Source: a virus (taxonomy: Duplodnaviria; Heunggongvirae; Uroviricota; Caudoviricetes). From it: a stretch of 37,294 nucleotides of DNA. This document shows positions 15,918-35,446 of this stretch, in pieces. Position 1 is the first letter of the stretch, and each line of letters opens with the position of its first letter. Under the pieces are notes generated by a model. It saw only the letters and a list, made by a program, of their open reading frames with translations. It was not told the DNA's origin and did no database searches. The stretch lies in IMG/VR virus record IMGVR_UViG_2711768034_000003, one strand, 5' to 3'. The translations under genes were made by a program, and so were the position numbers.

Positions 15918-18900
15918 ATGGGTAAAGGCAGCAGTAAGGGGCATACCCCGCGCGAAGCGAAGGACAACCTGAAGTCCACGCAGCTGCTGAGTGTGATCGA
16001 TGCCATCAGCGAAGGGCCGGTTGAAGGTCCGGTGGATGGATTAAAAAGCGTGCTGCTGAACAGTACGCCGGTGCTGGACACTGAGGGGAATACCAACATC
16101 TCCGGTGTCACGGTGGTGTTCCGTGCCGGTGAGCAGGAGCAGACACCGCCGGAGGGGTTTGAATCCTCCGGCTCCGAGACGGTGCTGGGTACGGAAGTGA
16201 AATATGACACGCCGATCACCCGCACCATTACGTCTGCAAACATCGACCGTCTGCGCTTTACCTTCGGCGTGCAGGCACTGGTGGAAACCACCTCAAAGGG
16301 GGACCGGAATCCGTCGGAAGTCCGCCTGCTGGTTCAGATCCAGCGTAATGGTGGCTGGGTGACGGAAAAAGACATCACCATTAAGGGCAAAACCACCTCG
16401 CAGTATCTGGCCTCGGTGGTGGTGGGTAACCTGCCGCCGCGCCCGTTCAATATACGGATGCGCAGGATGACGCCGGACAGCACCACAGACCAGCTGCAGA
16501 ACAAAACGCTCTGGTCGTCATACACCGAAATCATCGATGTGAAACAGTGCTACCCGAACACGGCACTGGTCGGCGTGCAGGTGGATTCGGAGCAGTTCGG
16601 CAGCCAGCAGGTGAGCCGTAATTATCATCTGCGCGGGCGCATTCTGCAGGTGCCGTCGAACTATAACCCGCAGACGCGGCAATACAGCGGTATCTGGGAC
16701 GGAACGTTTAAGCCAGCATACAGCAACAACATGGCCTGGTGTCTGTGGGATATGCTGACCCATCCGCGCTACGGCATGGGGAAACGTCTTGGTGCGGCGG
16801 ATGTGGACAAATGGGCGCTGTATGTCATCGGCCAGCATTGCGATCAGTCGGTGCCGGACGGTTTTGGCGGCACGGAGCCGCGCATCACCTGTAATGCGTA
16901 CCTGACCACACAGCGTAAGGCGTGGGATGTGCTCAGTGATTTCTGCTCGGCGATGCGCTGTATGCCGGTATGGAACGGGCAGACGCTGACGTTCGTGCAG
17001 GACCGACCGTCGGATAAGGCGTGGACCTATAACCGCAGTAATGTGGTGATGCCGGATGATGGCGCGCCGTTCCGCTACAGCTTCAGCGCCCTGAAGGACC
17101 GCCATAATGCCGTTGAGGTGAACTGGATTGACCCGAACAACGGCTGGGAGACGGCGACAGAGCTTGTTGAAGATACGCAGGCCATTGCCCGTTACGGTCG
17201 TAACGTCACGAAGATGGATGCCTTTGGCTGTACCAGCCGGGGGCAGGCACACCGCGCCGGGCTGTGGCTGATTAAAACGGAACTGCTGGAGACGCAGACC
17301 GTGGACTTCAGCGTGGGTGCGGAAGGGCTTCGCCATGTACCGGGCGATGTCATTGAAATCTGCGATGATGACTATGCCGGTATCAGCACCGGCGGGCGCG
17401 TGCTGGCGGTGAACAGCCAGACCCGGACGCTGACGCTCGACCGTGAAATCACGCTGCCATCCTCCGGTACCACGCTGATAAGCCTGGTTGACGGAAGAGG
17501 CAATCCGGTCAGCGTGGAGGTCCAGTCCGTCACCGACGGCGTGAAGGTAAAAGTGAGCCGTGTTCCTGACGGCGTTGCCGGATACAGCGTATGGGGGCTG
17601 AAGCTGCCGACGCTGCGCCAGCGCCTGTTCCGCTGCGTGAGTATCCGTGAGAACGATGACGGCACGTATGCCATCACCGCCGTGCAGCATGTACCGGAAA
17701 AAGAGGCCATCGTGGATAACGGGGCGCACTTTGACGGCGACCAGAGCGGCACGGTGAATGGTGTCACGCCGCCAGCGGTGCAGCACCTGACTGCCGAAGT
17801 CACCGCAGACAGCGGGGAATATCAGGTACTGGCCCGCTGGGACACGCCGAAGGTGGTGAAGGGGGGGAGCTTTATGCTTCGCCTGACCGTGGCAGCGGAC
17901 GACGGCAGTGAGCGGCTGGTCAGCACGGCCCGGACGACAGAAACCACATACCGCTTCACGCAACTGGCGCTGGGACGGTACACGCTGACAGTCCGGGCGG
18001 TAAATGCGTGGGGACAGCAGGGCGATCCGGCGTCGGTATCGTTCCGGATTGCCGCACCGGCAGCGCCGTCGCGGATTGAGCTGACGCCGGGCTATTTTCA
18101 GATAACTGCCACGCCGCATCTTGCGGTTTATGATCCGACGGTACAGTTTGAGTTCTGGTTCTCGGAAACGCGGATTACCGATATCAGGCAGGTTGAAACC
18201 ACAGCCCGCTACCTTGGCGCGGGGCTGTACTGGATAGCCGCCAGTATCAATATCAAACCGGGCCATGATTATTACTTTTATATCCGCAGTGTGAACACCG
18301 TTGGCAAATCGGCATTCGTGGAGGCTGTTGGTCAGCCGAGTGATGACGCATCCGGCTATCTGGATTTTTTCAAAGGCGAGATAGGGAAAACCCATCTGGC
18401 TCAGGAGCTGTGGACGCAGATTGATAACGGTCAGCTTGCGCCTGACCTGGCTGAAATCAGGACGTCCATTACGGATGTCAGCAATGAAATCACGCAGACC
18501 GTCAATAAGAAACTGGAAGACCAGAGTGCGGCAATTCAGCAGATACAGAAGGTTCAGGTTGATACAAATAATAACCTGAACAGCATGTGGGCTGTGAAGC
18601 TGCAGCAGATGCAGGACGGACGCCTTTATATCGCGGGTATTGGTGCCGGTATTGAGAACACCCCTGACGGCATGCAGAGTCAGGTGCTGCTGGCGGCAGA
18701 CAGGATTGCGATGATTAATCCTGCGAATGGCAACACAAAGCCGATGTTTGTTGGGCAGGGCGATCAGATATTCATGAACGAAGTGTTCCTGAAACGCCTG
18801 ACGGCTCCCACCATTACCAGCGGTGGAAATCCACCGGCATTTTCCCTGACACCGGACGGAAAGCTGACTGCTAAAAATGCGGATATCAGCGGTAACGTGA

Positions 18901-19397
18901 ATGCGAACGCCGGGACGCTCAACAACGTCACGATTAATGAAAACTGTCGGGTTCTGGGAAAACTGTCTGCGAACCAGATTGAAGGCGATCTCGTTAAAAC
19001 AGTGGGCAAAGCTTTCCCCCGGGACTCCCGTGCACCGGAGCGGTGGCCATCAGGGACCATTACCGTCAGGGTTTATGACGATCAGCCGTTTGACCGGCAG
19101 ATTGTTATTCCCGCGGTGGCGTTTCGTGGCGCTAAACATGAGCGGGAGAATAACGATATTTATTCGTCATGCCGCCTGATAGTGAAGAAAAACGGTGCTG
19201 AAATTTATAACCGTACCGCGCTGGATAATACGCTGGTTTATACAGGTGTTATTGATATGCCTGCCGGTCGCGGTCACATGACGCTGGAGTTTTCGGTATC
19301 AGCGTGGCTGGTAAATGACTGGTATCCCACAGCCAGTATCAGTGATTTGCTGGTTGTGGTGATGAAGAAATCCACAGCAGGTATCACGATTAGCTGA
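15918..19397 (+). CDS. J: tail tip attachment / central tail fibre protein gpJ (host specificity)
   Basis: 1159-aa [78 protein letters not shown]...; lambda J-like along its length, but about 27 aa longer than the 1132 aa I recall for lambda J. Confidence 0.93.
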
Positions 19398-19413
19398 ATT
19401 TTCATAACCCATA

Positions 19414-19443
19414 TGCGGGCGCCATTTCTGGCGCCTTTTTTAT
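19414..19443 (+). terminator. rho-independent terminator downstream of J
   Basis: GCGGGCGCCatttctGGCGCC followed by TTTTTTATT. Confidence 0.7.
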
Positions 19444-19465
19444 TGCAGAAAAGCGAGAGGTAATT

Positions 19466-20065
19466 ATGCGTAAAGTTTGTGCAGCCATTTTGTCCGCAGC
19501 CATCTGTCTGGCCGTATCCGGTGCGCCTGCATGGGCGTCTGAACATCAGTCCACACTGAGCGCGGGGTATCTTCATGCCCGTACGAACGCTCCCGGCAGC
19601 GATAATCTGAACGGGATTAACGTGAAATACCGTTATGAGTTTACGGACACGCTGGGGCTGATTACGTCATTCAGTTATGCCAACGCTGAAGATGAGCAAA
19701 AAACGCATTACAGCGATACCCGCTGGCATGAGGATTCCGTGCGTAATCGCTGGTTCAGCGTGATGGCGGGGCCGTCTGTGCGCGTGAATGAATGGTTCAG
19801 CGCGTATGCGATGGCGGGTGTGGCTTACAGCCGTGTTTCGACTTTCTCCGGGGATTATCTCCGCGTAACTGACAACAAGGGGAAAACGCACGACGTGCTG
19901 ACCGGAAGTGATGACGGTCGCCACAGCAACACGTCTCTGGCGTGGGGGGCTGGCGTGCAGTTTAACCCGACCGAATCCGTGGCCATTGATGTCGCTTATG
20001 AAGGCTCCGGCAGTGGCGACTGGCGCACTGACGGTTTCATCGTGGGTGTCGGTTATAAGTTCTGA
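19466..20065 (+). CDS. lom: Lom outer-membrane protein (Ail/Lom/OmpX family beta-barrel)
   Basis: 199-aa ORF with signal peptide MRKVCAAILSAAICLAVSGAPAWA and C-terminal ...GFIVGVGYKF; SD GAGAGG upstream; same position as lambda lom. Confidence 0.92.
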   Translation: MRKVCAAILSAAICLAVSGAPAWASEHQSTLSAGYLHARTNAPGSDNLNGINVKYRYEFTDTLGLITSFSYANAEDEQKTHYSDTRWHEDSVRNRWFSVMAGPSVRVNEWFSAYAMAGVAYSRVSTFSGDYLRVTDNKGKTHDVLTGSDDGRHSNTSLAWGAGVQFNPTESVAIDVAYEGSGSGDWRTDGFIVGVGYKF

Positions 20066-20092
20066 TTAGCCAGGTAACACAGTGTTATGACA

Positions 20093-20119
20093 GCCCGCCG
20101 GTTCTGGCGGGCTTTTTTG
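20093..20119 (+). terminator. rho-independent terminator downstream of lom
   Basis: GCCCGCCggttctGGCGGGC followed by TTTTTTGT. Confidence 0.7.
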
Positions 20120-20129
20120 TGGGGTGAAT

Positions 20130-23100
20130 ATGGCAGTAAAGATTTCAGGTGTACTGAAAGACGGTGCAGGTAAACCGGTACAGAACTGTACAATCCAGCT
20201 GAAAGCAAAACGTAACAGCACCACGGTGGTGGCGAACACGGTGGCCTCAGAAAATCCGGATGAAGCCGGGCGTTACAGCATGGACGTTGAGTACGGTCAG
20301 TACAGCGTTATTCTGTTGGTGGAAGGCTTCCCGCCATCGCATGCCGGGACCATCACCGTGTATGAAGACTCACAACCGGGTACGCTGAATGATTTTCTCG
20401 GTGCCATGACGGAGGATGATGTCCGTCCGGAGGCACTGCGCCGCTTTGAACTGATGGTGGAAGAGGTGGCGCGTAACGCGTCCGCAGTGGCACAGAACAC
20501 GGCAGCCGCGAAGAAGTCAGCCAGCGATGCCGGCACATCAGCCCGTGAGGCGGCAACCCGTGCGACTGATGCTGCAGGCTCAGCACGTGCAGCCAGCACG
20601 TCAGCCGGACAGGCCGCGTCGTCGGCTCAGTCAGCGTCTTCCAGCGCAGGAACGGCATCAACAAAGGCCACTGAAGCATCAAAAAGTGCTGCCGCCGCAG
20701 AGTCTTCAAAAAGCGCGGCAGCCACCAGTGCCGGTGCAGCGAAAACGTCGGAAATGAATGCCGCAGCATCACAAAAATCTGCGGCCACATCTGCATCCAC
20801 CGCGACCACGAAAGCGTCAGAAGCTGCCACCTCAGCCCGGGATGCGTCGGCTTCAAAAGTGGCGGCAAAATCATCAGAAACGAGCGCTGCCTCGAGCGCC
20901 GGCAGTGCAGCTTCCTCGGCAACGGCAGCAGGAAATTCCGCGAAGGCTGCAAAAACGTCTGAGACGAATGCGGATAACAGCGCACAGGCGGCAGCAGACT
21001 CACAAACTGCATCGGCAAACTCCGCGACAGCAGCCAAAAAATCAGAAACCAACGCGAAAAATAGTGAGGCAGCAGCAAAGGTCAGCGAAACCAACGCTAA
21101 AGCGTCAGAGAACAAGGCGAAAGAATATCTCGACAAGGTCGGGGGACTCGTCAGCCCGATGACGCAATACGATTGGCCCGTTGTTACTGGTAATGAGTCT
21201 TTTTACATAAAGATCGCGAAACTTTCCGATCCCGGAAGCGGCAATTGCCATGTAACGCTAATGGTTACTAACGCTGGTAACTACGGCTCCCCTTACGGAA
21301 ACATTGACTTTATCGAGATCTCGGCGCGCGGTCTGCCTTCTTTGCTTAGTGCGGATAATGTTTCTCGTCATCTGAGTATACGCCGCTTAGGGTCAACCGG
21401 GCTGACCGATAACAACCAGATGCGTTACGGCCTGGTTAAAGGTGACGGCTTTATTGAGGTTTGGGCCTTCCAGCGCGCATTTATCAACGGCGCAAAGGTT
21501 GCGGTACTGGCGCAGACGGCACGCACGGAATTATACATTCCAGACGGATTTGTTAAGCAAACCGCCGCGCCTTCTGGATATGTTGAAAGCCCCGTTGTAA
21601 GGATTTACGACCAGGTAAACAAACCCAGCAAGGCAGATTTAGGTCTTTCCAATGCTATGCTTATAGGAGCCTTCGGTCTTGGCGGCAGCGGTGTTGGTTT
21701 GGATAATAAAATGACCGATCAGGAGCTACTACAAGAGCTAAGGGCGAAAGGTGGATGTTTCTGGAGGTCAGGAAAAGGAACAGGTAGCACAGCCACATTT
21801 TTCAGTCACGGATCTGGCATATTCTCTCGGTGTAGCGATACGTGGGCAGCGTTAAATATAGACTACGACAGTGGTAGGGTGAAGGTTTACGCTGGTAATG
21901 ACAGGAGACTTGATGATGGTACTTTTAACATCAATGAGCTATACGGAACCAGGCACAAACCATCGAAATCGGACGTTGGACTTGGCAACGTAACTAATGA
22001 TGCGCAGGTGAAAAAATCCGGCGATGTTATGTCAGGTGACTTGACGATCAATAAAGACACACCATCACTATTCCTTAGGGCAACTGGTGAAACAGGTGCT
22101 GCCGCTGTGCGGTTTTATACTGGCACTAACCAGGAGCGCGGCATAATCTATGCTGGTCCTAACACTGATTCGCTTGGCGAAGTTCGCATCAGGGCTAAAA
22201 ACGCAAAAGGTGTGTCGGGTGGTGATCTTATTGTTCGCCACGACGGGGTGGTTGAGGTTCAGAATCTCACAGCGGCTAAAAAAGTAAAAAGCGTAAACGC
22301 AGAGCTTGCAAACACATCAACTAACACGCTTGAGAACACGTTAAAAATCAGCGGTCAACAGCATACTCCGTTACTTTTAACGCGTACCGGTTATTCTGAA
22401 AACCTATCCATTGGTTTTAAGGTTGACAACCTTGATCAAAAATATCTCGGAATCAATGGCAGTGGAGATCTAGCTTTTGGTAAAAATACTGATCATAAAC
22501 AAAACAGCAGAGTAATTACACAAGCAATACTGGATAGCGGTGTGACGGTGGGCGGCAAAACAACATTTTCTGACCTTGCCACATTTAACGCAGGTATTGC
22601 GGGATCTATCAAGCCAGAAGAGCTTGACCAAAAGACTATTGATCTTAACGACCTAACCATCAAAGGCGAAAATAAAGGATCAGTCAAATACTATCAATGT
22701 AGGACTTCCGGCGGTGGCGCGAATATTACCAACAAACCTAACGGCGTAAGCGGTAACTTTTTGCTACGTGTAGAGTCACTTCGCAATAACACGGATGTAG
22801 ACTATATAAACGTACAAACCCTGGTTAGCGGCGACAAAGGACGCATGTATGTTCGTTTTGTTACTAATGGGAATTTTACAGCATGGAGCGAGCCTGTTGT
22901 TTCAGGATGGAATCAGGATGTAACCGTCAGGTCGTTAACCTCGACGACTCCATCAAAATTAGGTGGCGGGCGGATTGATGTGCTTGGAAGTACGTCAGAT
23001 TATGACAGCATGAATTGTACCGTGCGCGGTGTTGATAGCAGCGGAACTAATTCTGCGTGGTCAGTAGGCACATCAGTAGACACTGGCAAAACGTTGTATC

Positions 23101-23882
23101 TGAAAAACCACAGAACCAGTTCACAAGTGCTGATAAGTGGCGATACTGGATCTATTAAGCTACAAAATGGTAATGCAAACAAGGAGTTAGCGCTAACCGA
23201 AGATTCAGTTACCTCAAACGCTGACATTATCCTAAAAAATAGTGATGATGGTTCGCGTCTTCTTATAAGAAACTCAAACACTTCGGCGCAGTCGTGGAGT
23301 ATCAGGGCATGGGGTCAAAGCGGAAGGGAAAGCGTTTTTGAAATTGGTAACACCAAGCAATACATGTTTTACGCACAAGAAACGGCATCGGGTGGCAGAA
23401 ATTTTGACTTTAACGGTGATGTTACATGTAAGACACTATACCAAACTTCTGATCAAAGCCTTAAAGACAACATTAAGGTTATAGGTGACGCTACCGAATC
23501 CATCCGTAAAATGAATGGGTACACATACACGTTTAAGGACGACGGCCTGCCTTATGCTGGCGTTATTGCACAAGAAGTAATGGATGCGCTGCCTGAAGCG
23601 ATAGCGTTTACCACTCTTTACGGTAAAGAGCTACAGGGGCCAACAACTGACGGAAACGTGTTACGCGAAGAGATGAAGTGCCTTAGCGTTGACTATGCGG
23701 CGGTGACTGGTTTACTTGTTCAGGTCGCCCGTGAAACAGATGATCGCGTTACCGCGCTGGAAGAGGAAAACACAACGCTACGTGAAAATCTGGCAACAGC
23801 AGACACCCGGATCAGCACTCTGGAAAATCAGGTAAGCGAACTGGTTGCACTTGTCCGGCAGTTAACAGGAAGCGAACATTGA
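20130..23882 (+). CDS. stf: side tail fibre protein (Stf): lambda-like N-terminal anchor and Ala/Ser-rich repeat region fused to a non-lambda distal module with a C-terminal intramolecular chaperone (peptidase S74-like) domain
   Basis: N-terminus MAVKISGVLKDGAGKPVQNCTIQLKAKRNSTTV... and the A/S-rich repeats (about aa 130-330) match lambda Stf. From about nt 21120 the sequence diverges. C-terminus ...LYQTSDQSLKDNIKVIGDATESIRKMNGYTYTFKDDG... followed by a coiled-coil tail resembles the autocleaving chaperone domain of endosialidase/T5 L-shaped fibre type fibres. Confidence 0.85.
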   Translation: MAVKISGVLKDGAGKPVQNCTIQLKAKRNSTTVVANTVASENPDEAGRYSMDVEYGQYSVILLVEGFPPSHAGTITVYEDSQPGTLNDFLGAMTEDDVRPEALRRFELMVEEVARNASAVAQNTAAAKKSASDAGTSAREAATRATDAAGSARAASTSAGQAASSAQSASSSAGTASTKATEASKSAAAAESSKSAAATSAGAAKTSEMNAAASQKSAATSASTATTKASEAATSARDASASKVAAKSSETSAASSAGSAASSATAAGNSAKAAKTSETNADNSAQAAADSQTASANSATAAKKSETNAKNSEAAAKVSETNAKASENKAKEYLDKVGGLVSPMTQYDWPVVTGNESFYIKIAKLSDPGSGNCHVTLMVTNAGNYGSPYGNIDFIEISARGLPSLLSADNVSRHLSIRRLGSTGLTDNNQMRYGLVKGDGFIEVWAFQRAFINGAKVAVLAQTARTELYIPDGFVKQTAAPSGYVESPVVRIYDQVNKPSKADLGLSNAMLIGAFGLGGSGVGLDNKMTDQELLQELRAKGGCFWRSGKGTGSTATFFSHGSGIFSRCSDTWAALNIDYDSGRVKVYAGNDRRLDDGTFNINELYGTRHKPSKSDVGLGNVTNDAQVKKSGDVMSGDLTINKDTPSLFLRATGETGAAAVRFYTGTNQERGIIYAGPNTDSLGEVRIRAKNAKGVSGGDLIVRHDGVVEVQNLTAAKKVKSVNAELANTSTNTLENTLKISGQQHTPLLLTRTGYSENLSIGFKVDNLDQKYLGINGSGDLAFGKNTDHKQNSRVITQAILDSGVTVGGKTTFSDLATFNAGIAGSIKPEELDQKTIDLNDLTIKGENKGSVKYYQCRTSGGGANITNKPNGVSGNFLLRVESLRNNTDVDYINVQTLVSGDKGRMYVRFVTNGNFTAWSEPVVSGWNQDVTVRSLTSTTPSKLGGGRIDVLGSTSDYDSMNCTVRGVDSSGTNSAWSVGTSVDTGKTLYLKNHRTSSQVLISGDTGSIKLQNGNANKELALTEDSVTSNADIILKNSDDGSRLLIRNSNTSAQSWSIRAWGQSGRESVFEIGNTKQYMFYAQETASGGRNFDFNGDVTCKTLYQTSDQSLKDNIKVIGDATESIRKMNGYTYTFKDDGLPYAGVIAQEVMDALPEAIAFTTLYGKELQGPTTDGNVLREEMKCLSVDYAAVTGLLVQVARETDDRVTALEEENTTLRENLATADTRISTLENQVSELVALVRQLTGSEH

Positions 23883-23919
23883 TATCCTTCAAGCTCTGAA
23901 GGAGGCTGTTCCCGGTACG

Positions 23920-24862
<943 letters not shown>

Positions 24863-24942
24863 CTAAGTCTTTGAATTTACATAGTACAAAAAAGATGCTT
24901 TTCCTCATAATGTGAATTAATTTTATGTTTCGTTTGATGATT

Positions 24943-25008
24943 GGACCGGTCTCGAAAACCGGAGTAGGGGCAACTCTACCGGGGGTTCAAATCCCCCTCT
25001 CTCCGCCA
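24943..25008 (+). other. 3' fragment of a tRNA-Ser(CGA) gene (anticodon stem-loop to CCA); att-like core, not a complete tRNA
   Basis: GGACCGGTCTCGAAAACCGGAGTAGGGGCAACTCTACCGGGGGTTCAAATCCCCCTCTCTCCGCCA matches the 3' two-thirds of enterobacterial tRNA-Ser (serU type); upstream sequence cannot form the acceptor or D arms. Confidence 0.8.
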
Positions 25009-25590
25009 CTTTATCAATGACTTATCTCCCGACTTCCCGCCTTGCTTTTCCTAAACAGAACAATCGTAGAATATTCTTGAAGGGTTAGATCGTCACTGTT
25101 TTCTGTTCGATACTGTGACATTCAGCACTTGATTCGCTATGGATCTGACAGGAAGGTTTCGAGCGAAAATCTGCAGTTATTCAGTCGTTTTCTTATCGGT
25201 CACCATTATTCTTTTAGACATTGATCCTACAAAGCTGCCGCAAAGTTGGTGGTGGGAACTGAAGTTGCGTAGAGAAGGGGTCAATATCCGGAGGCAAACA
25301 TGGGCTGGCAAAAGTGTAGCGGTATTAGGCGCAGCTATTTAGCCTAGTTATGTTTTATGAAAACTTGATATCATATAAGTGTCTTACTTATTGGCTGTAA
25401 ATAAGTCCTTCCTAAGGAATTGTTTCTTGAGTATCATTTGTAACTGTAACGGAATTTATAATCCTTTGCTTTATTGTTACGGTATTTTTTATCACACCCT
25501 ATTTTTAGTGGTTTTTTATACTGAAGTTTGGCAAAGTGAACTTTATATACATATACTTCATCCTGGTTTCAGTTAAATTGGGTGGATGAT

Positions 25591-26334
25591 ATGGCAACTA
25601 CATGTTCAGTTATATTGATTTTGGAGTCCTTTGATGTTTATTTCGGAAAAGAGAGTGTGTTTCTGGAGAGAGGTTCATCTGTACTTGTCGACTCTAGCTC
25701 TAGAGATTTTTTCCTGACATATCCTGAAAGAGTGATAGTGGCGGATTTTGGCGCTGAGTTTATTAGTCGCTATTTGAAAGCTAATAACTTAAGGGATATT
25801 TCTGATTGTAGGGAATATCCATCTTATTTAAAAATAAACTTTGCTGACTTCAGTTTAATTAAAGGATTAATTAGTTGGGCTAATCACTGTGCTGAATACA
25901 TAGAAATTTTTGATGAGTCTATTGCTTTTACATGTCTCTCTGCATTTTCTTCTGAAAAACAATTTGGAGTATTTCTGTTTGGATGTTTGAAAAGCACAGG
26001 GGCTAAAGTTAAAACGATTATTCATACGGATTTATCTGCACCATGGCGTCTTAAGGATATATCATCAAGATTATATCTCAGCGAAAGTTTACTAAAGAGG
26101 AAATTGAAAGAAGAGGGGGTATCATTCAGTAAGATCATACTTGATGAGAGGATGCAAATGGCTGAATATTTACTCAGCACTCGTTGTTATCCTATTAGTA
26201 AAGTAGCTAAGGTCTGTGGTTATGCCAGTGTCTCATACTTTACTTATGTATTTAGACGTTATTTTGGTGTTTCTCCAAGTCAATACTCTCAGAGGAGTTC
26301 AGAAAGTAAAATTCTTACTCACCAGGGAATCTGA
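25591..26334 (+). CDS. AraC/XylS-family transcriptional regulator (Rns/AggR-like size and layout)
   Basis: ATG at 25591 with GGTGGA SD-like sequence upstream. C-terminal dual HTH ...LYLSESLLKRKLKEEGVSFSKIILDERMQMAEYLL...ISKVAKVCGYASVSYFTYVFRRYFGVSPSQY typical of AraC family; AT-rich codon usage. Confidence 0.8.
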   Translation: MATTCSVILILESFDVYFGKESVFLERGSSVLVDSSSRDFFLTYPERVIVADFGAEFISRYLKANNLRDISDCREYPSYLKINFADFSLIKGLISWANHCAEYIEIFDESIAFTCLSAFSSEKQFGVFLFGCLKSTGAKVKTIIHTDLSAPWRLKDISSRLYLSESLLKRKLKEEGVSFSKIILDERMQMAEYLLSTRCYPISKVAKVCGYASVSYFTYVFRRYFGVSPSQYSQRSSESKILTHQGI

Positions 26335-26337
26335 TCA

Positions 26338-26810
26338 TTGTTCTTGCCCCCTTATTTCCAGACAGGGGGTGTATCTTAAGTTAACGTTACCCGCTGACGT
26401 CGATATTCTCGCGGAGAGCGATAACCCAACGCACTGTGCGGATGGTTTTCATTGTAATGTTCGATCGCCACTGCAAGATTATGCAATGCCGTTCTTACAT
26501 TCGGTTTCGGCATGAACGCGATGTAGTCTTCCTTCATCGTTTTCACGAACCTTTCTGCAATTCCATTACTCTGAGGACTGCTGATTGCCGTTGTGCAGGG
26601 CTCCAGATTCAACTCTCTGGCGAACTGCCGTGTTTCATGCGCTCTATACGCTGAACCGTTATCTGTCAGCCACTGGATGGACTGTTCCGGTACTTTATCG
26701 CCAAAGCGTTTTTCTATCGCTCCTAACATGACATCCTGCACTGTCGCTTTATCGTAACCGCCCGTGCTTGCGGCCCAGTCTATGGCTTCACGATCGCAAC
26801 AGTCCAGGGC
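26338..26810 (-). mobile_element. truncated IS2-group (IS3-family) insertion sequence: terminal end plus 3' part of the transposase gene
   Basis: End sequence TTGCCCCCTTATTTCCAGACA resembles the IS2 terminus. The reverse-strand ORF encodes ...[14 protein letters not shown]...[10 protein letters not shown]...[12 protein letters not shown], the C-terminal DDE integrase core of IS3-family OrfB. Homology stops near 26805-26810. Confidence 0.75.
26376..26804 (-). pseudogene. IS3-family transposase OrfB, C-terminal about 140 codons only (5' truncated)
   Basis: In-frame homology to IS2 InsD extends upstream of the first Met (…[28 protein letters not shown]…) to a stop; no N-terminal half and no OrfA. 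Confidence 0.7.
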
Positions 26811-27088
26811 GATTCATCTGGGCCAATCCTTGCTCATAACAGGCATTCACTTCAGTCATGGCAGAAAGGTATGCATGCTGGAGAAGTCGTAAAAGAAAAG
26901 AAGACTGCTGCGCCGTTTGTCGTCACGTTTATCTTCATTGGCTATGCAAGTCGTAATACAAGGTGGGACAAAACTGAGACACATAAGGCCTCGCAATGGC
27001 TTGCAAGGCTTTACATGTTTTGATGTGGTGGGACGTGTGAGCGCAGTGTTGATGGGGTAATGCTTTGAATTAGAAGCGGATTCTTATA

Positions 27089-27134
27089 ATTCGTAATGCG
27101 AAGGTCGTAGGTTCGACTCCTATTATCGGCACCA
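27089..27134 (+). other. 3' fragment of a tRNA-Thr(CGU) gene (anticodon loop to CCA); att-like core, not a complete tRNA
   Basis: ATTCGTAATGCGAAGGTCGTAGGTTCGACTCCTATTATCGGCACCA matches the 3' part of enterobacterial thrW-type tRNA-Thr; the 5' acceptor strand GCCGATA is absent upstream. Confidence 0.8.
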
Positions 27135-27411
27135 TCTTTTCTCGTAAAATCATTAAGTTGCTATTGCAGTGTTTTGCGTTGTTCAACACTAATGTACATT
27201 TTTGCGCGTTATGAGTGTGGCAAAATTGTGGCAGACACAGTGAGATTGTTTGTGGATCAATGCAAGAGTATGCTAACAGCATGTTTACCTTGCAGCTCCC
27301 CCTTGTCTTTGAGCAATACACTACTTGATGGCTGCTGGTTACGAACGTTGTCAGAGATTGCTATCACAAGGGGATGGCGCTGAGAATTCATCCTAAATGA
27401 TTGAGGCCAGC

Positions 27412-28461
27412 ATGGAAAAGGAATTACAGCTCAAAGCTGATGAACAAATAAAAGCATACTCCAAAAAAATAGATTTTTACACCTCAGAATATACTGTAGA
27501 AATACTTGCACAAAAAGTAAGAGCTGGCGAATATACAGTCCCTGCATATCAACGTGAGTATACTTGGGATGAACCAAGAAAATGTAAATTTATTGAGTCG
27601 CTAATCATAGGTCTTCCTATTCCATTCGTATTTTTCTGGATGAATGACGATACCGGAAAACTAGAAATTGTTGATGGTTCGCAGCGGCTTAGAACCATTG
27701 AAGAATATTTTAATAATCGTTTAACCCTTGATGGGCTAGAGCGTTTGGATCTTCTTAATGGTACAAGATTTGAAGATTTACCATTAGCACGCCAAAGAAA
27801 AATTTTAAATAAATCTATCCGGGGAATAATACTATCCGAAGATACAGATATGGAAGCAAGGGTTGATTTATTTGAAAGGATAAATACAGGCAGTAAAGTT
27901 GCTAATCCTGCTGAGGTTAGACGCGGTGTTTTACGTGGTCCATTTATGGATTTAATCAATGAATTGGCTGCTAATCAACTGTTTATTAAACTAGCGCCTG
28001 TTTCTGCAAAGCAAAAAAAAGAACGAGAGCCAGAAGAACTAGTAACTAGATTTTTTGCATACTCCGATGGTCTTGACGGATATAGAGATGATGTATCAGC
28101 ATTTATATTTAGATATATAAAGCGAATGAATGAGTTGTTCGAGGAGGATGCAGCTCTGGCTCAACAATATAGAGATCGCTTTTCTCGAATGTTAGCATTC
28201 GTAGAACAAAGTTTCCGTCTCGGATTTAAGAAAACAGTAAAAGGTACAACGACACCACGTGCTCGTTTCGAGTCCATTGCGATAGGCTCGCATTTAGCAT
28301 TAGAAATTAATGGTTCGCTCCAAGTAACTAAGGAACAAACTGACGAAATATTAGAAAGCGATTCCTTTAAAGCTGAAATTCGATCTGATGGCGCTAACGC
28401 AATAAGAAGATTGCAGGGAAGAATTGGTTATATTAGAGATGCTCTTTTAGAGAGGGCTTGA
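27412..28461 (+). CDS. DUF262 / ParB-like nuclease-domain protein (GmrS-like N-terminal domain family)
   Basis: ATG at 27412 with GAGG SD 6 nt upstream (track ORF starts 15 nt earlier). Signature YTVPAYQREYTWDE...LEIVDGSQRLRTIEEYF characteristic of DUF262. Confidence 0.8.
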   Translation: MEKELQLKADEQIKAYSKKIDFYTSEYTVEILAQKVRAGEYTVPAYQREYTWDEPRKCKFIESLIIGLPIPFVFFWMNDDTGKLEIVDGSQRLRTIEEYFNNRLTLDGLERLDLLNGTRFEDLPLARQRKILNKSIRGIILSEDTDMEARVDLFERINTGSKVANPAEVRRGVLRGPFMDLINELAANQLFIKLAPVSAKQKKEREPEELVTRFFAYSDGLDGYRDDVSAFIFRYIKRMNELFEEDAALAQQYRDRFSRMLAFVEQSFRLGFKKTVKGTTTPRARFESIAIGSHLALEINGSLQVTKEQTDEILESDSFKAEIRSDGANAIRRLQGRIGYIRDALLERA

Positions 28462-28463
28462 TC

Positions 28464-29189
28464 ATGCAACTAGTAAAAGATGTTTTTGATGAAAGAGTTG
28501 CTGATATCGAGAGCTATTTTGAATTGGTGAATAATGTTGAGCTTGCAATTGGCTCTGGAGGAGCGATATTCAGTGTTAATGGGACGCAATACCAAATAAA
28601 TCCTGATCAGCAGAAGATAATGTATTCTGGAATATATCTACATTTGTATAATTTGGTCGAATCGACGATCTCTATGTTAATAGATGCTGTCGAACGGCAT
28701 GCGGCGCAAGGAATTAATGGACAACTGGTTCTACTAACTGAAAACATGAAGAAGCTGTATGTTAAATCTGTAGCAGCTCCTTTTGAATCAATAAATAATG
28801 ATTTACGGTTAGAGAAGGCGTTAGAACTATTTGACCAAGTATTAAATATAAAGCCTCTTGAACTTAGGATCCCGCCGGGAGGCGGAGGTAATTGGGACTT
28901 AAAAGAAATAGAGAGGATAAGTAAGAGTATAGGTGTTGATGTCACTCTTCCCAGAGCGCTTAGGGCAAAGGTAAATGCTCCATTTAGAGACGATAAAGGA
29001 CCTATTCGGCTAGTTAAAGAAATAAGAAACAAATTAGCTCATGGTTCTCTTTCATTTACACAATGTGGTACGAACCATGTAGCCAGTGATTTTAGGCGGT
29101 TGATTGATATAGTCAAAGAATACTTAGCCCATATAATCCGATCTTATGAAAACTTCATAACCGCACAAGGTTATAAGATTGCACAATGA
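28464..29189 (+). CDS. HEPN-like domain protein (R-x4-H motif), translationally coupled to the DUF262 gene
   Basis: ATG at 28464, 2 nt after the DUF262 stop, with AGAGGG SD inside the upstream gene; C-terminal EIRNKLAHGSLSF fits the HEPN Rx4-6H motif; 241 aa. Confidence 0.65.
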   Translation: MQLVKDVFDERVADIESYFELVNNVELAIGSGGAIFSVNGTQYQINPDQQKIMYSGIYLHLYNLVESTISMLIDAVERHAAQGINGQLVLLTENMKKLYVKSVAAPFESINNDLRLEKALELFDQVLNIKPLELRIPPGGGGNWDLKEIERISKSIGVDVTLPRALRAKVNAPFRDDKGPIRLVKEIRNKLAHGSLSFTQCGTNHVASDFRRLIDIVKEYLAHIIRSYENFITAQGYKIAQ

Positions 29190-29192
29190 TAT

Positions 29193-30257
29193 TTATTTGG
29201 CCAAGGACGTAATTATACTTTGGCCAATAATCTCTCCTAACTTGACCGGAACTGCATTTCCGATCATTTTAGCTAATGTAGCTACGCTTAGCGGGTTTTC
29301 GTCATCATGAAACTTATAAGCTAAAGGAAATGATTGTAGTAATGCAGCCTCCCTTAGACTGATCGCTCGATCTTGCACAGGATGCCCAAATCTACCATTC
29401 CCATAACCATTACATTGAGTAGTAATTGTTGGTGATGGCTCATCCCATGTCATCCGTCCATAAACACTTGGATAAGTTTTTCCTGTCATTTTCTTATGGC
29501 AGCTAGCCCTTAGTTCTTCCGGCCAATCCAGCCAAGAACCGCCAGGTTTTGAATATTGAATCCGCTTTAAGTTTATAGGGCTTAGAATTGACGAGCGATG
29601 TATAGGATCAACCTTATCCTTTTCGCCTGCTGTTATGCGAGGAAGATGCTCAATCGCATCTCTTACAGTGACATATTTATCTGCAGTATGCGTAGCTGGT
29701 ATTATTGATATCTCGCTAACTTTTGATGCGATTAATACTAATCTTTTTCGCGTTTGAGGGATTCCATAATCAGGACAAAATACGATTTTATAATCAAATG
29801 AATAACCGTTATGCCGAAGAGTTGCTAAAAACGCATTAAATACTCCCTGTTCTGCCAAGCCAGGAACATTTTCCATTGTAACGAAATCAGGAGTGATCTC
29901 ATTGATCAGGCGCCCAAAGCTTTCCAGAAGGTTCCATCGTTTGTCAGGAGAAGTAGTTCGTTTTATATTTGCTCTGGAATATGTTGAGAAGGGTTGGCAA
30001 GGTGCACATCCAGCAAGGAGGGTGTAATCGCCGCCAGCCAGATACTTTGCTACATCATTTCCTGAAAGATGAGTTACATCTTGTTTTATAAATCTGGCGT
30101 TGTTATTGATTTCATACGCATAACGACAAGATTCCTCGATATCATATCCGGCGGTCACGGATATGCCTGAACGCTGGAGACCATGCGTTAGCCCCCCGGC
30201 TCCACAAAAAAGATCCACTGCCTTAATTTTTGTATGATTTTTCAACGTAAACCTCAC
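29193..30257 (-). CDS. DNA (cytosine-5)-methyltransferase
   Basis: Motif I DLFCGAGG, motif IV GCAPCQPFS (PCQ), ENV, QTRKR, and GNAVPV all present in canonical order. Start is GTG at 30257 or, more likely, TTG at 30245 preceded by a GAGG SD. Convergent with the HEPN gene, 3 nt apart. Confidence 0.9.
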   Translation of the reverse strand: MRFTLKNHTKIKAVDLFCGAGGLTHGLQRSGISVTAGYDIEESCRYAYEINNNARFIKQDVTHLSGNDVAKYLAGGDYTLLAGCAPCQPFSTYSRANIKRTTSPDKRWNLLESFGRLINEITPDFVTMENVPGLAEQGVFNAFLATLRHNGYSFDYKIVFCPDYGIPQTRKRLVLIASKVSEISIIPATHTADKYVTVRDAIEHLPRITAGEKDKVDPIHRSSILSPINLKRIQYSKPGGSWLDWPEELRASCHKKMTGKTYPSVYGRMTWDEPSPTITTQCNGYGNGRFGHPVQDRAISLREAALLQSFPLAYKFHDDENPLSVATLAKMIGNAVPVKLGEIIGQSIITSLAK

Positions 30258-30600
30258 TACTTAGACGTGGCGAATTATAGCAAAATTTACAATGAACATC
30301 GAGGGATTTTATTTCCTTTGAAATCATGTATATAGTTATTTTTTAAGTTAATACTCAACAGTTAGATGCTGAGATACTCTTTCCTGCCAGACAATCAAAC
30401 ATAGTTCCACCTAGTTTTCCTGCAAGGACTTTGAATCTGTTCACCGCCTGCAAAATTAGGTCGAAAGAATGTTACAACAACAACATACACAGGCAATCAA
30501 ACACGCTTAGTCGTCCATTAGTATTTCCGGCTGATTAGATGTAAGATCTTAAGGTCTAATGTAGGCTGTTCCATTCAGGCCAGAGTGGCAAAATAAAAAG

Positions 30601-30630
30601 GCCCGATCTTACCAGTCGGGCTTCTTTATA
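30601..30630 (-). terminator. rho-independent terminator (reads best on the minus strand, downstream of the HigA-like gene)
   Basis: GCCCGAtcttaccagtCGGGC; on the minus strand the hairpin is followed by CTTTTTTATTTT. Confidence 0.6.
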
Positions 30631-30821
30631 TCGGCTTTTAATGTCGCCTGTACCACTGCTAAAATGACTTACCTAGTCATGGCAGGTTCCCATCATCAAG
30701 GATCGGATTTTTTAATCCTCAGTCGTCCGAGTATATTATCGCTTTAATAAGTCGTTAGAAATGTATGAGTATTATTCAAAGCAAATTATGTATTAGGACT
30801 AAGTAATCTAATTGAATAATC

Positions 30822-31079
30822 TTACTTTTGTTTATTAAACCATGCCTCATGTAGCTCTTGCAGTTTCACCCAAAAAGATGCATCTGTATTGAAAATTATC
30901 GAGAGTTGAATAGCTTCTTCAAGAGTTATATTTCGCTCATTTTTAATTATTTCCCAAATTTTTTCATATGATGTATCCATCAGTTCAGCAAGTCTTGCGG
31001 GAGGCATATCCAATGGTTTCAAGAATTCTTCGTATAAAATCTCTCCGACAGTTGAAGGTGCAGCATTTATTGTCCTCAT
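30822..31079 (-). CDS. HigA-family antitoxin-like XRE HTH protein (orphan; no adjacent toxin ORF)
   Basis: 85-aa ORF with ...TVGEILYEEFLKPLDMPPARLAELMDTSYEKIWEIIKNERNITLEEAIQLSIIFNTDASFWVKLQ... matching the HigA/VapI addiction-module antidote pattern; strong SD AAGGGGGGG upstream of the ATG at 31079. Confidence 0.7.
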   Translation of the reverse strand: MRTINAAPSTVGEILYEEFLKPLDMPPARLAELMDTSYEKIWEIIKNERNITLEEAIQLSIIFNTDASFWVKLQELHEAWFNKQK

Positions 31080-31122
31080 ACCCCCCCTTTTTTTTAAACG
31101 TCATCGGATTCCTTACAGTAAT

Positions 31123-31138
31123 TTGTTTAGCTAAACAA
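31123..31138. repeat. 16-bp perfect palindrome TTGTTTAGCTAAACAA (candidate operator)
   Basis: Self-complementary; related palindromes GGTTAGCTAACC (31234-31245) and GTTTAGCTAAAC (31312-31323) share the TTAGCTAA core. Confidence 0.6.
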
Positions 31139-31411
31139 ATCAGAGAGTAAGGTTAGTTGAAGTGTTTTTCTTACTCAAATTCGATATATCCGTTGTCAGA
31201 AATGAATCATTTACAAACAGTGTTTCTTATAAAGGTTAGCTAACCAAATTTATAAGTCATCTACAATCCCCTGTTATTTACATTTTGTTTCATTTTATTT
31301 ATTGCTATTTAGTTTAGCTAAACAATCTATTTTATCATGTATAATCTGTGTATTTATCCACAGATTCTGTTAATAATATTGTGTATAACTTGTTTGCTTA
31401 TTTTTTATTAT

Positions 31412-31477
31412 ATGACATATGAGGTGCGCCTTTATGACATATGAGGTACGCTTTCATGACATTTGAGGTACGGATAT
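31412..31477 (+). repeat. three tandem 22-bp direct repeats (iteron-like): ATGACATATGAGGTGCGCCTTT / ATGACATATGAGGTACGCTTTC / ATGACATTTGAGGTACGGATAT
   Basis: Read directly from the sequence; contiguous, no spacers, in an AT-rich non-coding stretch. Confidence 0.8.
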
Positions 31478-31722
31478 AATTTAAAATTGTCATATTAAAC
31501 AAGTGAATATATCGCTTTTCCACACCTCTCTAACCTGATCTTTAACCTTTTATATAACCAAAAAGATTAAAGGAATTATTAAAACCTTAGTGTCATTCAG
31601 AAATCGGTCAATAAAACCAATTTCATATGGAGTAAGAATCCGATGAATAAAAACCCTGTTGACATTATTATTTTTGCCAGTAAGTTTTAATTATTCTCAA
31701 TTCATAACGTTGGTTAGCAAAC

Positions 31723-31750
31723 TTTAGCGGCTAAAATTTTAGCCGCTAAA
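31723..31750. promoter_or_regulatory. 28-bp perfect palindrome TTTAGCGGCTAAAATTTTAGCCGCTAAA (candidate operator) just upstream of the HTH/AT-hook gene
   Basis: Perfect dyad symmetry; ends 22 nt before the ATG at 31773; shares the TTAGC/GCTAA half-site with the upstream palindromes. Confidence 0.65.
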
Positions 31751-31772
31751 ATCCTCAAATTTCTACTGAGAG

Positions 31773-32066
31773 ATGGGTTCTTCGATGAAATCAGTTATGC
31801 CAGAACTTATAACCGTTGAAGAGTTGGCTTTTGCATTAAAGAAAACTGTAAAAAGTATCCGCAGTGATGCAACGCGAAATCCAAAATGTCTTCCACCAAG
31901 ATGCCGTCTTCCCGGTAATAAACGTCTTCTCTGGCGTAGAGAAGATGTTAAGGACTGGATAGATAAATCTGTTGAGTCAAAGACAGAAAATGACGATATA
32001 GCGAAAGAGATAAATAGGTTTCAAAGGAAACGTGGCAGGCCGCCAAAACCCAAGCCGCGAGAATAA
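31773..32066 (+). CDS. small DNA-binding protein, excisionase/AlpA-like HTH with C-terminal AT-hook (RGRPPKPKP)
   Basis: 97-aa ORF; ...ELITVEELAFALKKTVKSIRSDATRN... and ...RLLWRREDVKDWI... resemble MerR/excisionase-type HTH; basic tail FQRKRGRPPKPKPRE is an AT-hook-like motif. Confidence 0.55.
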   Translation: MGSSMKSVMPELITVEELAFALKKTVKSIRSDATRNPKCLPPRCRLPGNKRLLWRREDVKDWIDKSVESKTENDDIAKEINRFQRKRGRPPKPKPRE

Positions 32067-32169
32067 AAATATTTCTTAGGGTCATTCAAATAATTTCCCT
32101 TCCAATAAACACATATGCTGCACATTTTTACACTACTAATCCTGCACAAATGCTTTAGGAAAACACACT

Positions 32170-32336
32170 GAGTACACAGGAATACACAATACGTACACAG
32201 ATTCACAACGGCAAATGTAGGGCAGGATATGTAAAGTAGGCCCACCGTAAACGGTGCTTCTACTTTACCTTCCCTTATTCGCAGCTGAGCTGCTCAACGG
32301 AGTCCTGCTCTGCGAGGCTGATCGGCTACCGCCTGT
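32170..32336 (+). promoter_or_regulatory. candidate origin of transfer (oriT) / MobC operator region: TACACAG repeats and nested inverted repeats
   Basis: gagTACACAGgaaTACACAatacgTACACAG (about 32172-32210); nested IR GTAAAGTAGgcCCACCGtaaaCGGTGcttCTACTTTAC (about 32228-32266); then GCAGCtgaGCTGC and ...GAGTCCTGCTCT... immediately upstream of the MobC-like gene. Confidence 0.4.
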
Positions 32337-32348
32337 ATGGAGAATGAT

Positions 32349-32702
32349 ATGACCGTTTCTCAGACTAGAAAAAATAGTACACCAATTAAAGTTTATTGTT
32401 TGCCAGATGAAAAAGCGCAAATCCAGGAAAATGCTGAAGCATCTGGCTTAAGTGTAGCGAGTTTCATTCGTAAAGTAGCAATGGGTTATCAGGTTGAATC
32501 TATGGTAGATATTGAACAGGTTGTAGAGCTTAGCCGAGTAAATGCTGATCTTGGTCGACTTGGTGGGTTACTTAAACTGTGGTTAGCTGACGATCCACGC
32601 ACAGTTGATTTTTCACCCTCATTGATAAAAACGTTGCTTGCTAAAATAGAATCAACCAGACAAGAACTAAGAAATATTATGGATAGAATCTTGGATAAAT
32701 AA
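32349..32702 (+). CDS. MobC-like ribbon-helix-helix relaxosome accessory protein
   Basis: ATG at 32349 with GGAG SD. N-terminal RHH-like IKVYCLPDEKAQIQENAEASGLSVASFIRKVAMGY and central VELSRVNADLGRLGGLLKLWL resembling the MobC family motif. Confidence 0.55.
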   Translation: MTVSQTRKNSTPIKVYCLPDEKAQIQENAEASGLSVASFIRKVAMGYQVESMVDIEQVVELSRVNADLGRLGGLLKLWLADDPRTVDFSPSLIKTLLAKIESTRQELRNIMDRILDK

Positions 32703-32783
32703 ATTTATGGTTTCCTAAATATCTGTATTTGTTAAAAGTACGAGTTTTCAATATTAATAATCAATTAAATTTGAGGTGGGCAA

Positions 32784-33578
32784 ATGAAGTTAATGCTCCG
32801 AGTATTTTCATCACTGAGAGGGATTTTAGCAGCTAAAAAATCATTAGCAGCTTCCTTCCTGGCGTCCATCATGGCATTACCGGCGACAGCCGGTATCCCT
32901 GTAATTGATGGTACTAATGTGGTGCAGACCACAATCAGCGCAGTCAACAACGTTCAGGCTGTGGCAAAACAGATCCAGCAGTACCAGACGCAGCTGCAGC
33001 AGTATGAAAACATGCTCAAAAATACAGTCGCACCTGCAGCCTATATCTGGGATCAGGCCAATTCGACCATCAACAAATTGTTGCAGGCGCAGGACACCCT
33101 TAATTACTACAAAAACCAGGCCGGGAGTCTTGATTCATATCTGAAACGTTATCAGGACGTGAATTACTACCGCTCATCACCATGCTTTAACAGTAATGTT
33201 GAATGTACTGCGGATGAAATTAGCGCACTGCGCAAAGCTGAACAGAACAGCTCTGAGGCACGTAAAAAGGCCAATGACGCTGTATTTAAGGCTCTTGACG
33301 AACAGCAGGAAACACTGCAAAGCGATGCTGACAACCTTGCAGATTTGCAAACGCAGGCAACCGGCGCACAAGGGCAAATGGAAGCTATTCAGGCCGCTAA
33401 CCAGCTTGCCAGTGCTCAAACGAACCAGTTGCTGCAAATCCGCTCGCTTCTGGTATCCCAGCAAAACGCTGCAGCAACACTGGCACAGGCTGAGGCTGAT
33501 AAAGAAGCCCAACAAATAGTCGCTGATGAAAAAGCGTTAGCTGGCGAGAACACACTAAGCCCGAAGCGAATTTGGTGA
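32784..33578 (+). CDS. trbJ: P-type conjugative transfer protein TrbJ (VirB5-like)
   Basis: 264-aa ORF with signal peptide; ...PATAGIPVIDGTNVVQTTISAVNNVQAVAKQIQQYQTQLQQYENMLKN... matches the TrbJ N-terminal signature; coiled-coil Q-rich body; GAGGTGG SD upstream. Confidence 0.75.
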   Translation: MKLMLRVFSSLRGILAAKKSLAASFLASIMALPATAGIPVIDGTNVVQTTISAVNNVQAVAKQIQQYQTQLQQYENMLKNTVAPAAYIWDQANSTINKLLQAQDTLNYYKNQAGSLDSYLKRYQDVNYYRSSPCFNSNVECTADEISALRKAEQNSSEARKKANDAVFKALDEQQETLQSDADNLADLQTQATGAQGQMEAIQAANQLASAQTNQLLQIRSLLVSQQNAAATLAQAEADKEAQQIVADEKALAGENTLSPKRIW

Positions 33579-33589
33579 GGGAGAGCTGA

Positions 33590-33763
33590 ATGAAAGATAA
33601 ACTTTTGGTCATTTTTATTCTAATAATTTCATTAATTCTATGCTCTTGCGATAAAAAAGATGAATATTGTTTATCGACGCCAGAGAATAAATTGAACGAA
33701 CATAACTACGATAAATGTGCCCTGCGTGGCAATAACAATCCTAGCCCTAAGCGAGAATGGTAA
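33590..33763 (+). CDS. small lipoprotein, TrbK-like entry-exclusion candidate (not in the supplied ORF track)
   Basis: ATG at 33590 with GAGGGAG SD; 57 aa MKDKLLVIFILIISLILCSCDKKDEY... with lipobox-like LILC; sits between trbJ and trbL as trbK does in IncP Tra2. Confidence 0.5.
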   Translation: MKDKLLVIFILIISLILCSCDKKDEYCLSTPENKLNEHNYDKCALRGNNNPSPKREW

Positions 33764-35160: not shown

Positions 35161-35167
35161 TTTAGGC

Positions 35168-35199
35168 GCGTCAGTTAGCGCGGTAACGTTAACTGACGC
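35168..35199. repeat. 10-bp perfect inverted repeat GCGTCAGTTA ... TAACTGACGC (12-nt spacer)
   Basis: Read directly; lies between the trbL stop and the next gene's RBS; no T-tract follows. Confidence 0.5.
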
Positions 35200-35229
35200 T
35201 TCCACTAAACACCTGTAAGGAGGTGGATA

Positions 35230-35442: not shown

Positions 35443-35446
35443 TAAT

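Follow-up and report, generated by a model that had tools for sequence, protein, structure and literature searches.

Analysis of a 37,294-nt stretch of viral DNA (IMG/VR record IMGVR_UViG_2711768034_000003; hereafter the window) showed that it carries two pieces of transfer RNA (tRNA) genes, one from the 3′ part of serU, encoding tRNA-Ser(CGA), and one from that of thrW, encoding tRNA-Thr(CGU). Both are true scars of phage integration and each keeps an attachment (att) core, but they have a different standing. The thrW piece is the junction of a lambda-like prophage with an older island in the same tRNA gene, i.e., a case of the ordinary tandem accretion already documented at such sites. The serU piece, in contrast, is an internal fossil attR (the right-hand phage-host junction) that still holds captured host DNA and travels as cargo of phages; the present prophage does not end there. 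Truncated copies of genes and insertion sequences (IS) are marked below with a prime.

The serU piece, its host flank and the travelling block

The serU piece agrees at 66/66 positions with nt 25–90 of serU in an alignment to Escherichia coli K-12, and the base preceding 24943 differs from serU. The thrW piece comprises the 3′ 46 nt of that gene (ATTCGTAATGCGAAGGTCGTAGGTTCGACTCCTATTATCGGCACCA), matches it exactly and is present in a single copy in the window; both pieces lie on the plus strand. Because 25–27-nt sub-strings of either piece occur once in the window and in none of 100 shuffles, a chance origin is excluded. ARAGORN, run over the whole 37.3-kb window, predicted neither a tRNA nor a transfer-messenger RNA, so that no complete cloverleaf and hence no functional tRNA gene was found, and at gathering thresholds Rfam reported no tRNA in the window, its sole report being a traJ-II RNA further downstream. 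In line with this, an earlier note made from the letters alone, which had located both pieces, read them as displaced copies of att cores rather than as genes and proposed tRNA prediction as a check, proved right, as it did in placing an AraC gene (Pfam HTH_AraC) and an IS2 remnant (NCBIfam IS2 TnpB) between them. It contained neither the serU identity that continues for 278 bp downstream, nor the 53-nt IS630-family end, nor the GIY-YIG gene adjoining the serU piece. Rfam hits below threshold also lie over the serU piece at 24927–25089 (tRNA-Sec, 29.7 bits; Plastid-psbl-rps4, 40.9 bits, minus strand; sX4, 19.1 bits), the tRNA-clan hit of 29.7 bits spanning 24927–24997; those that overlap the tRNA-Ser sequence probably reflect it rather than separate RNAs.

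Comparison with K-12 showed that the match extends beyond the tRNA: 24943–25286 is identical at 336 of 344 positions to serU and its downstream spacer, and in about 5400 complete E. coli genomes exactly the same span is matched at the native copy of serU, in some of them at 99.7%. What lies to the right of the serU piece is hence of bacterial origin, and the structure is an attR rather than an attP (the attachment site of a free phage). The reverse direction, in which the chromosome acquired the 278-bp flank from a phage, is opposed by these roughly 5400 matches at native serU. The flank ends at a TA (25285–25286), where it is fused to the truncated left side of IS630′; over positions 25290–25341 the sequence shows 94% identity to the final 52 nt of an IS630-family element of 1152 bp from plasmid pJNE23-001_1. 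The junction 25286|25287 thus joins the flank, at a TA, to an internally truncated element, and no intermediate was found. A simple scan of the captured flank revealed neither a terminator-like site nor an excess of promoter-like ones.

On the other side of the core, the sequence corresponds to that of genuine serU prophages. A query composed of the GIY-YIG arm, serU′ and the flank extended into K-12 yodB was matched by two genomes at 100% coverage and 98.7–98.8% identity, and strains MB15 and RMDEC332 harbor authentic serU prophages in which the phage-side arm is the same. In MB15, a complete SfV/e14-like prophage occupies serU in the order mtfA, serU, three open reading frames (ORFs), integrase, …, pinE, GIY-YIG, serU′, yodB. 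Window positions 24024–25286 are 98.3% identical to the MB15 attR with the same arm-core junction, and the serU piece retains the whole identity block common to the MB15 attL and attR. The GIY-YIG protein is identical to that of the MB15 prophage at 245 of 251 amino acids and diverges at about residue 248, some ten codons before the MB15 stop. Homology to MB15 and to O157:H7 strain FRIK944 begins at exactly 24024, and the 88–92% identity of the window to phages PhiR70_1 and ev099 ends at exactly 24023. In these alignments, 24023|24024 is a non-homologous junction at which lambda-like DNA passes into an SfV-like phage arm and the GIY-YIG gene is truncated, and the sequence from 24024 rightwards represents the phage-side (P) arm of a serU attR. 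The structure of a serU attR is hence present, with its 66/66 core, an MB15-type GIY-YIG arm on one side and the native spacer on the other. The features of a live one are missing: the flank stops at 25286 without reaching yodB, and the adjoining phage DNA is not contiguous with the lambda-like prophage.

The serU fragment, the flank, IS630′, the AraC-type gene patE and IS2′ together form a block (24947–26812) that is ∼99% identical in three phage genome records, ev099, mEp332 and PhiR70_1, where it is located between the tail-fibre assembly gene and attP-int. One of them, the lambdoid E. coli K-12 phage mEp332, has been quantified as a phage (PMC3442831). In ev099, the lambda attP core GCTTTTTTATACTAA follows downstream of the block. 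In strain A14, the block sits at the right end of a lambdoid remnant beside ybhB-bioA, with a lambda-type core carrying one mismatch. Position 26812 is the right edge of the conserved block, since homology with A14, ev099 and PhiR70_1 stops there, and the counterpart of IS2′ in PhiR70_1 is annotated as InsD of IS2. Because the block lies inside phage genomes, upstream of their attP, the serU piece is internal cargo and not a prophage end. What is found is thus att-linked host DNA inside packaged phage genomes, as in a capture resembling specialised transduction. The earlier note had let the lambda-like prophage end at the Ser fragment; this does not hold, as the locus is thrW, a relative in strain cS33a runs from thrW plus integrase to thrW′, and the piece is present inside packaged phages.

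The junction serU′-flank-IS630′-AraC was detected in 517 of 5426 complete genomes, of which 312 also contain the GIY-YIG arm and the thrW core. Most of the listed block carriers have two matching places, i.e., they retain native serU at a place of its own. None of the 5426 genomes has an intact serU with the AraC gene after it, and this order was rejected as an ancestral state: a query joining mtfA-serU-flank to IS630′-AraC reached at most 81% coverage in the same genomes, and its matches always begin inside serU (query position 178 or 183). A candidate P′ arm of a serU attP in the region after IS630′ was likewise discarded; it shares only an 11-nt match (CTAGTTATGTT, E = 0.32) with the MB15 attL arm, which we judged to be chance. 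The AraC protein is identical at 247/247 residues to the protein of the thrW locus of O157:H7, O-island 8 (OI-8), and scores 148 bits against NCBIfam YdeO, below the cut-off. PatE corresponds to z0321 on OI-8 (PMC10877973).

In E. coli MS 69-1, a 64-kb record labelled circular, “plasmid unnamed3”, harbors an SfV-like thrW prophage, the serU′-patE block and the neighbouring element, together with ∼20 kb of adjacent chromosome (ykgR, the pao operon, ecpD/E). The serU′-patE junction of this strain (758 bp) is matched on its chromosome too, and the plasmid record may reflect either in situ amplification of a prophage region or an artefact of assembly.

Not all copies of the block carry the same phage arm. 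In ev099, PhiR70_1, A14 and cS33a, the serU core is preceded by a different, unrelated arm, termed X. The final 116 bp of this arm in ev099, taken with the core and the flank, are 95.4% identical over 456 bp to the authentic attR of prophage SerU-LTIIb. All block copies, with either arm, share one haplotype of the distal flank (25156–25234), which differs from that found at native serU in K-12, MB15 and LTIIb. In the proximal 209 bp (24947–25155), the ten compared copies are nearly identical, with five variable positions, each altered in one to three sequences and none separating module copies from native loci. This pattern fits a single capture followed by at least one arm exchange, for which the crossover would lie in the core or proximal flank, within 24947–25155. 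Individual copies have also changed: FRIK944 has GG for TT in the T-loop of its serU copy, strain TR01 shows changes at the left edge, and in cS33a the serU fragment was lost through an IS1-associated deletion, all of which looks like neutral decay. Two further candidates among the O157:H7 sequences were dismissed. Matches starting 5 nt earlier, taken as a possible third arm type, are the same GIY-YIG arm with point changes, and a second place for the block, in TT12A, is OI-8 once more, in a genome whose numbering starts elsewhere.

The thrW locus and its tandem elements

The 46-mer of the thrW piece is, letter for letter, the att core of SfI, SfII, SfV and SfX; this 46-bp core was published for SfI and is common to SfII, SfV and SfX (PMC3636060). 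The sequence ahead of it resembles the arm of a known attP: 26964–27135 is 98.3% identical over 172 bp to SfIV 23073–23244, a stretch situated between gtrA and int, and 26827–27135 is 87.7% identical to phage phi458. An unoccupied site for comparison is provided by strain PS_131_S11, in which an intact thrW beside proA is directly followed by the same island as in the window (27089–36997, 99.9% identical). Identity with its intact thrW begins at 27089, and an integrase and another, diverged fragment of thrW close its island. PS_131_S11 thus shows how the thrW site looked ahead of the prophage's arrival. As had been proposed, the Thr piece is an element boundary, and the suggested comparison with a related genome lacking the insertion bears this out, with intact thrW directly abutting the same island.

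Two other genomes show the occupied locus. In cS33a, whose lambda-like prophage is 95–97% identical to window positions 1–24023, the order is proA, thrW, integrase, …, J, tail fibre, IS1, AraC, IS2′, thrW′ and the next integrase. In O157:H7 FRIK944, proA and thrW are followed by integrase, an SfV/e14-like prophage, GIY-YIG, serU′, AraC, IS2′, thrW′ and a P4-like integrase. The locus is hence an integration hotspot in thrW, downstream of proA, with two mobile elements in tandem, a well-known pattern of integrative elements at tRNA genes (PMC5704250). Because the prophage is located between the intact tRNA and the island, it is the later arrival of the two, and from the related genomes we infer that in this strain, too, it starts at intact thrW. 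The earlier view of two stacked att cores as like boundaries does not stand, as the present prophage/island junction is the thrW core and the serU piece is the internal fossil attR; with regard to its alternatives of serial accretion or IS-mediated rearrangement, serial accretion and IS-associated truncation have shaped the region.

Several details of the related genomes were recorded in passing. The cS33a extract contains Kiwa-like anti-phage genes, KwaA/KwaB, between Q and the lysis genes (35276–36687), and the matching region here lies outside the window. In the PS_131_S11 extract, the intact thrW (11971–12046) is followed by TCA, not CCA (…GGCATCA), and the window fragment reads GGCACCA. 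A 112-nt “tRNA-Ser” of RefSeq in that extract (23098–23209) is really the distal thrW 3′ fragment of the island, in which ARAGORN finds no tRNA; it shows a compensatory T-stem change from GTAGG/CCTAT to GGAGG/CCTCT, and the island integrase is transcribed divergently from it.

The features of the window are collected in the table below. The island to the right of the thrW core opens with GmrSD_N/DUF262, HEPN and methyltransferase genes (27397–30257), which look like a defence or restriction cluster, and an orphan HigA-like gene lies at 30822–31079. The traJ-II RNA, traJ, trbJ and trbL (32220–35160) are the remnant of a P-type conjugation system within the thrW island; the window stops short of the integrase and the distal thrW repeat of that island. 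At the right end of the window, an IS1 insertion interrupts an island gene annotated as tape measure; in PS_131_S11 this site is uninterrupted.

Table. Position, strand and basis of assignment of features in the window.
Feature	Position	Strand	Basis
Lambda-like prophage late region (terminase, portal, capsid, tail, tail-fibre-assembly remnant); left end outside the window	1–24023	+	ORFs, Pfam, similarity
J	15918–19397	+	ORF
Lom	19466–20065	+	ORF
Side tail fibre	20124–23882	+	Pfam phage_tail_N and Peptidase_S74 on 20124–23879
LEM-3-like GIY-YIG gene, chimeric 3′ end	23921–24766	−	Pfam PF22945
serU′, 3′ 66 nt of tRNA-Ser(CGA), relic att core of serU-integrating phages	24943–25008	+	66/66 with K-12 serU
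Native E. coli serU-yodB intergenic DNA, 278 bp, bacterial arm	25009–25286	+	Identity to K-12
IS630-family right end, terminal 53 nt, then TA (IS630′)	25287–25339	+	Similarity to plasmid copy
patE-type AraC/XylS regulator gene (YdeO/GadX-like)	25591–26334	+	Pfam HTH_AraC and HTH_18
Truncated IS2 (IS2′), C-terminal part of InsD	26376–26812	−	Pfam rve, rve_3; NCBIfam IS2 TnpB positions 172–289 of 301
Phage-side arm of thrW-type attP	26827–27088	+	Similarity to SfIV and phi458
thrW′, 46-bp att core of thrW-integrating phages, prophage/island junction	27089–27134	+	Exact match to published core
Older thrW island (GmrSD_N/DUF262, HEPN, Dcm, HigA, traJ-II RNA, traJ, trbJ, trbL, gene annotated tape measure)	27135–36997	+	99.9% to PS_131_S11; Pfam; Rfam
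GmrSD_N/DUF262	27397–28461		Pfam
HEPN_MAE_28990	28458–29189		Pfam
C5 cytosine methyltransferase	29193–30257	−	Pfam
traJ-II RNA (RF01760)	32220–32319		Rfam, 93 bits; directly upstream of traJ ORF
traJ ORF	32337–32702		
trbJ	32784–33578		
trbL	33757–35160		
IS1 insertion interrupting the island gene annotated tape measure	36998–37294	+	100% identical to cS33a IS1A

Origin of the block and rival explanations

We propose the following order of events. An ancestral phage would have integrated into the real serU and formed an attR there. This junction, with 278 bp of the serU-yodB spacer, may then have been carried off from the serU lysogen by aberrant excision or by an illegitimate event resembling specialised transduction. 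The captured junction would have become fused to a truncated IS630-family element upstream of patE, that is, in an IS630-interrupted patE region, and IS2 would have been truncated later. As accessory cargo between the tail-fibre genes and attP, the block could have been moved by phages with lambda-type and with thrW-type integration modules, and in the window's lineage the truncated GIY-YIG arm would finally have taken the place of arm X. At thrW, a lambda-like phage with an SfIV-type thrW module would have inserted into a gene already carrying the island, leaving the 46-nt core abutting the old left arm of the island, with the newest element nearest to the intact tRNA. We assign this model as a whole, i.e., tandem accretion at thrW and a fossil serU attR with 278 bp of host DNA travelling with patE as lambdoid cargo, a probability of about 0.8.

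Several observations weigh against it. The full IS630-family element that would mark the TA at +278 of the native serU-yodB spacer was found at 0 places with at least 80% of the designed query in the 5426 genomes. The best match to 14000–27300 reaches 85% coverage at 94.7% identity, and the exact junction patterns had no match in two scans of the GTDB species representatives or in one scan of IMG/VR. The arm exchange, as read from the alignments, would be compatible with an integrase-mediated or with a homologous crossover, and the sequences do not favor one over the other. Moreover, the window covers neither the prophage's left end nor this strain's intact thrW and native serU, and integration into thrW is deduced from the relatives.

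The position of the serU piece, ∼1 kb downstream of the tail-fibre genes, is where the attR of a lambdoid prophage is expected, and with an arm as in an authentic serU prophage on one side and a bacterial arm on the other it has a genuine attR structure. The lambda-like prophage could accordingly be a serU integrant with its live attR at this piece, the AraC gene and IS2′ lying between elements and the thrW piece belonging only to a second element. This reading is largely refuted and highly improbable, given that the locus is thrW, that the bacterial arm ends after 278 bp, and that at 24023|24024 the lambda-like DNA meets the GIY-YIG arm by a non-homologous junction instead of passing into an arm of its own; in addition, the near-identical cS33a prophage is bounded by thrW plus integrase and thrW′, and packaged phages carry the block in their genomes, upstream of an attP of their own. 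Even less credit is due to a large rearrangement, an inversion or translocation between serU and thrW prophages, that moved serU-adjacent DNA to thrW. Prophages at the two sites share long homology (yfdP-yfdR early genes, Mu-like tails) that could support recombination between them, yet the serU-side DNA amounts to only 278 bp and gives way to IS630′ and patE instead of yodB, neither yodB, zinT nor the rest of the serU neighbourhood is contiguous with the fragment, the identical junction recurs in 517 genomes and three phage genomes, and block carriers also keep a separate native serU locus.

Less improbable than either of these, though still doubtful, is a live role for the serU fragment as a portable docking or recombination site, at which serU integrases or short-homology recombination would plug serU-type phages into resident prophages. 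It would account for two unrelated phage arms, each also known from an authentic serU attR, being joined at the core to one flank haplotype, and for the retention of the whole identity block common to attL and attR of MB15. However, a single homologous exchange also accounts for the two arms, the O157:H7 copies have substitutions in the tRNA part and cS33a has lost the fragment, which looks like neutral decay, and no examined genome has a serU-type integrase with a P′ arm nested beside the fragment. The bolder form of this idea, a portable cassette through which serU phages dock into prophages at thrW or att-lambda, or through which carriers recombine with chromosomal serU, is a speculation to which we give slightly less weight still; if true, it would drive the exchange of whole virion modules and spread patE among phage lineages. 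Compared with these alternatives, we favor cargo derived from a captured attR.

A tRNA fragment beside tail-fibre genes thus need not be the end of a prophage. Boundary callers that use repeats of tRNA fragments would end the present prophage ∼2.2 kb early and leave out patE; the block is of practical use both for drawing prophage boundaries and for tracing the spread of patE. It represents a dated-looking trace of the capture of host DNA at serU, and this DNA now circulates in viable lambdoid phages that integrate elsewhere, with at least two specificities (att-lambda and thrW). The captured DNA lies in physical linkage with patE, which regulates acid resistance and genes of the enterocyte effacement locus (LEE) in enterohaemorrhagic E. 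coli (EHEC), and the model accounts for the arrival of patE in OI-8 of O157:H7 and in other lineages.

Comparison with known systems

The thrW core, the patE context of OI-8 and the capture of att-linked host DNA are each already known, and no new mechanism is needed. In the searchable literature, we found no account of a serU relic that is conserved, together with its captured flank, as cargo of phages in linkage with patE.

The closest relatives of the thrW junction are the att systems of SfI, SfII, SfIV, SfV and SfX, which share the identical 46-bp core, an attP arm 98.3% identical in SfIV, and accessory genes directly upstream of attP. The same thrW att core has been reported for P22. The Sf phages carry gtrABC at this position, whereas the cargo here consists of the serU relic, patE and IS2′; moreover, the virion module is lambda-like, with siphovirus J and side tail fibre (Stf) genes, instead of that of an SfV-type myovirus, and the bacterial side of attR is another island rather than chromosome. 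Tandem accretion of this kind is described for cis-mobilizable elements, integrative and conjugative elements, and integrative and mobilizable elements (CIME/ICE/IME, PMC5704250), but here a phage joins an ICE/IME-like remnant.

OI-8 of O157:H7 resembles the window over 24024–27137 at 97–99% identity, comprising GIY-YIG, serU′, flank, IS630′, patE, IS2′ and thrW′, and likewise forms a tandem array at thrW. It differs in its left element, an SfV/e14-like myovirus prophage (complete in FRIK944, degraded in TR01) in place of the lambda-like prophage fused here at 24023|24024, and in its right element, which is P4-like there and the trbJ/trbL island here. OI-8, or CP-933H, corresponds to the Sp1-Sp2 pair of the Sakai strain.

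With regard to the serU junction itself, SerU-LTIIb and MB15-type prophages have the same core and the same proximal flank and supply both arms seen at the core of the block. Unlike the block, they reside at the true serU, continue into yodB and have another distal flank haplotype. In specialised transducing phages such as lambda bio and lambda gal, host DNA contiguous with an att junction is found inside a viable phage genome, and the block shares this arrangement of att-linked host DNA within a phage. In contrast to lambda bio and lambda gal, however, only 278 non-coding bp of host DNA are carried here, their far junction is with an IS630 fragment, the mechanism of capture is a proposed one, and the phages have kept or regained a complete attP-int of another specificity, that of lambda or thrW.

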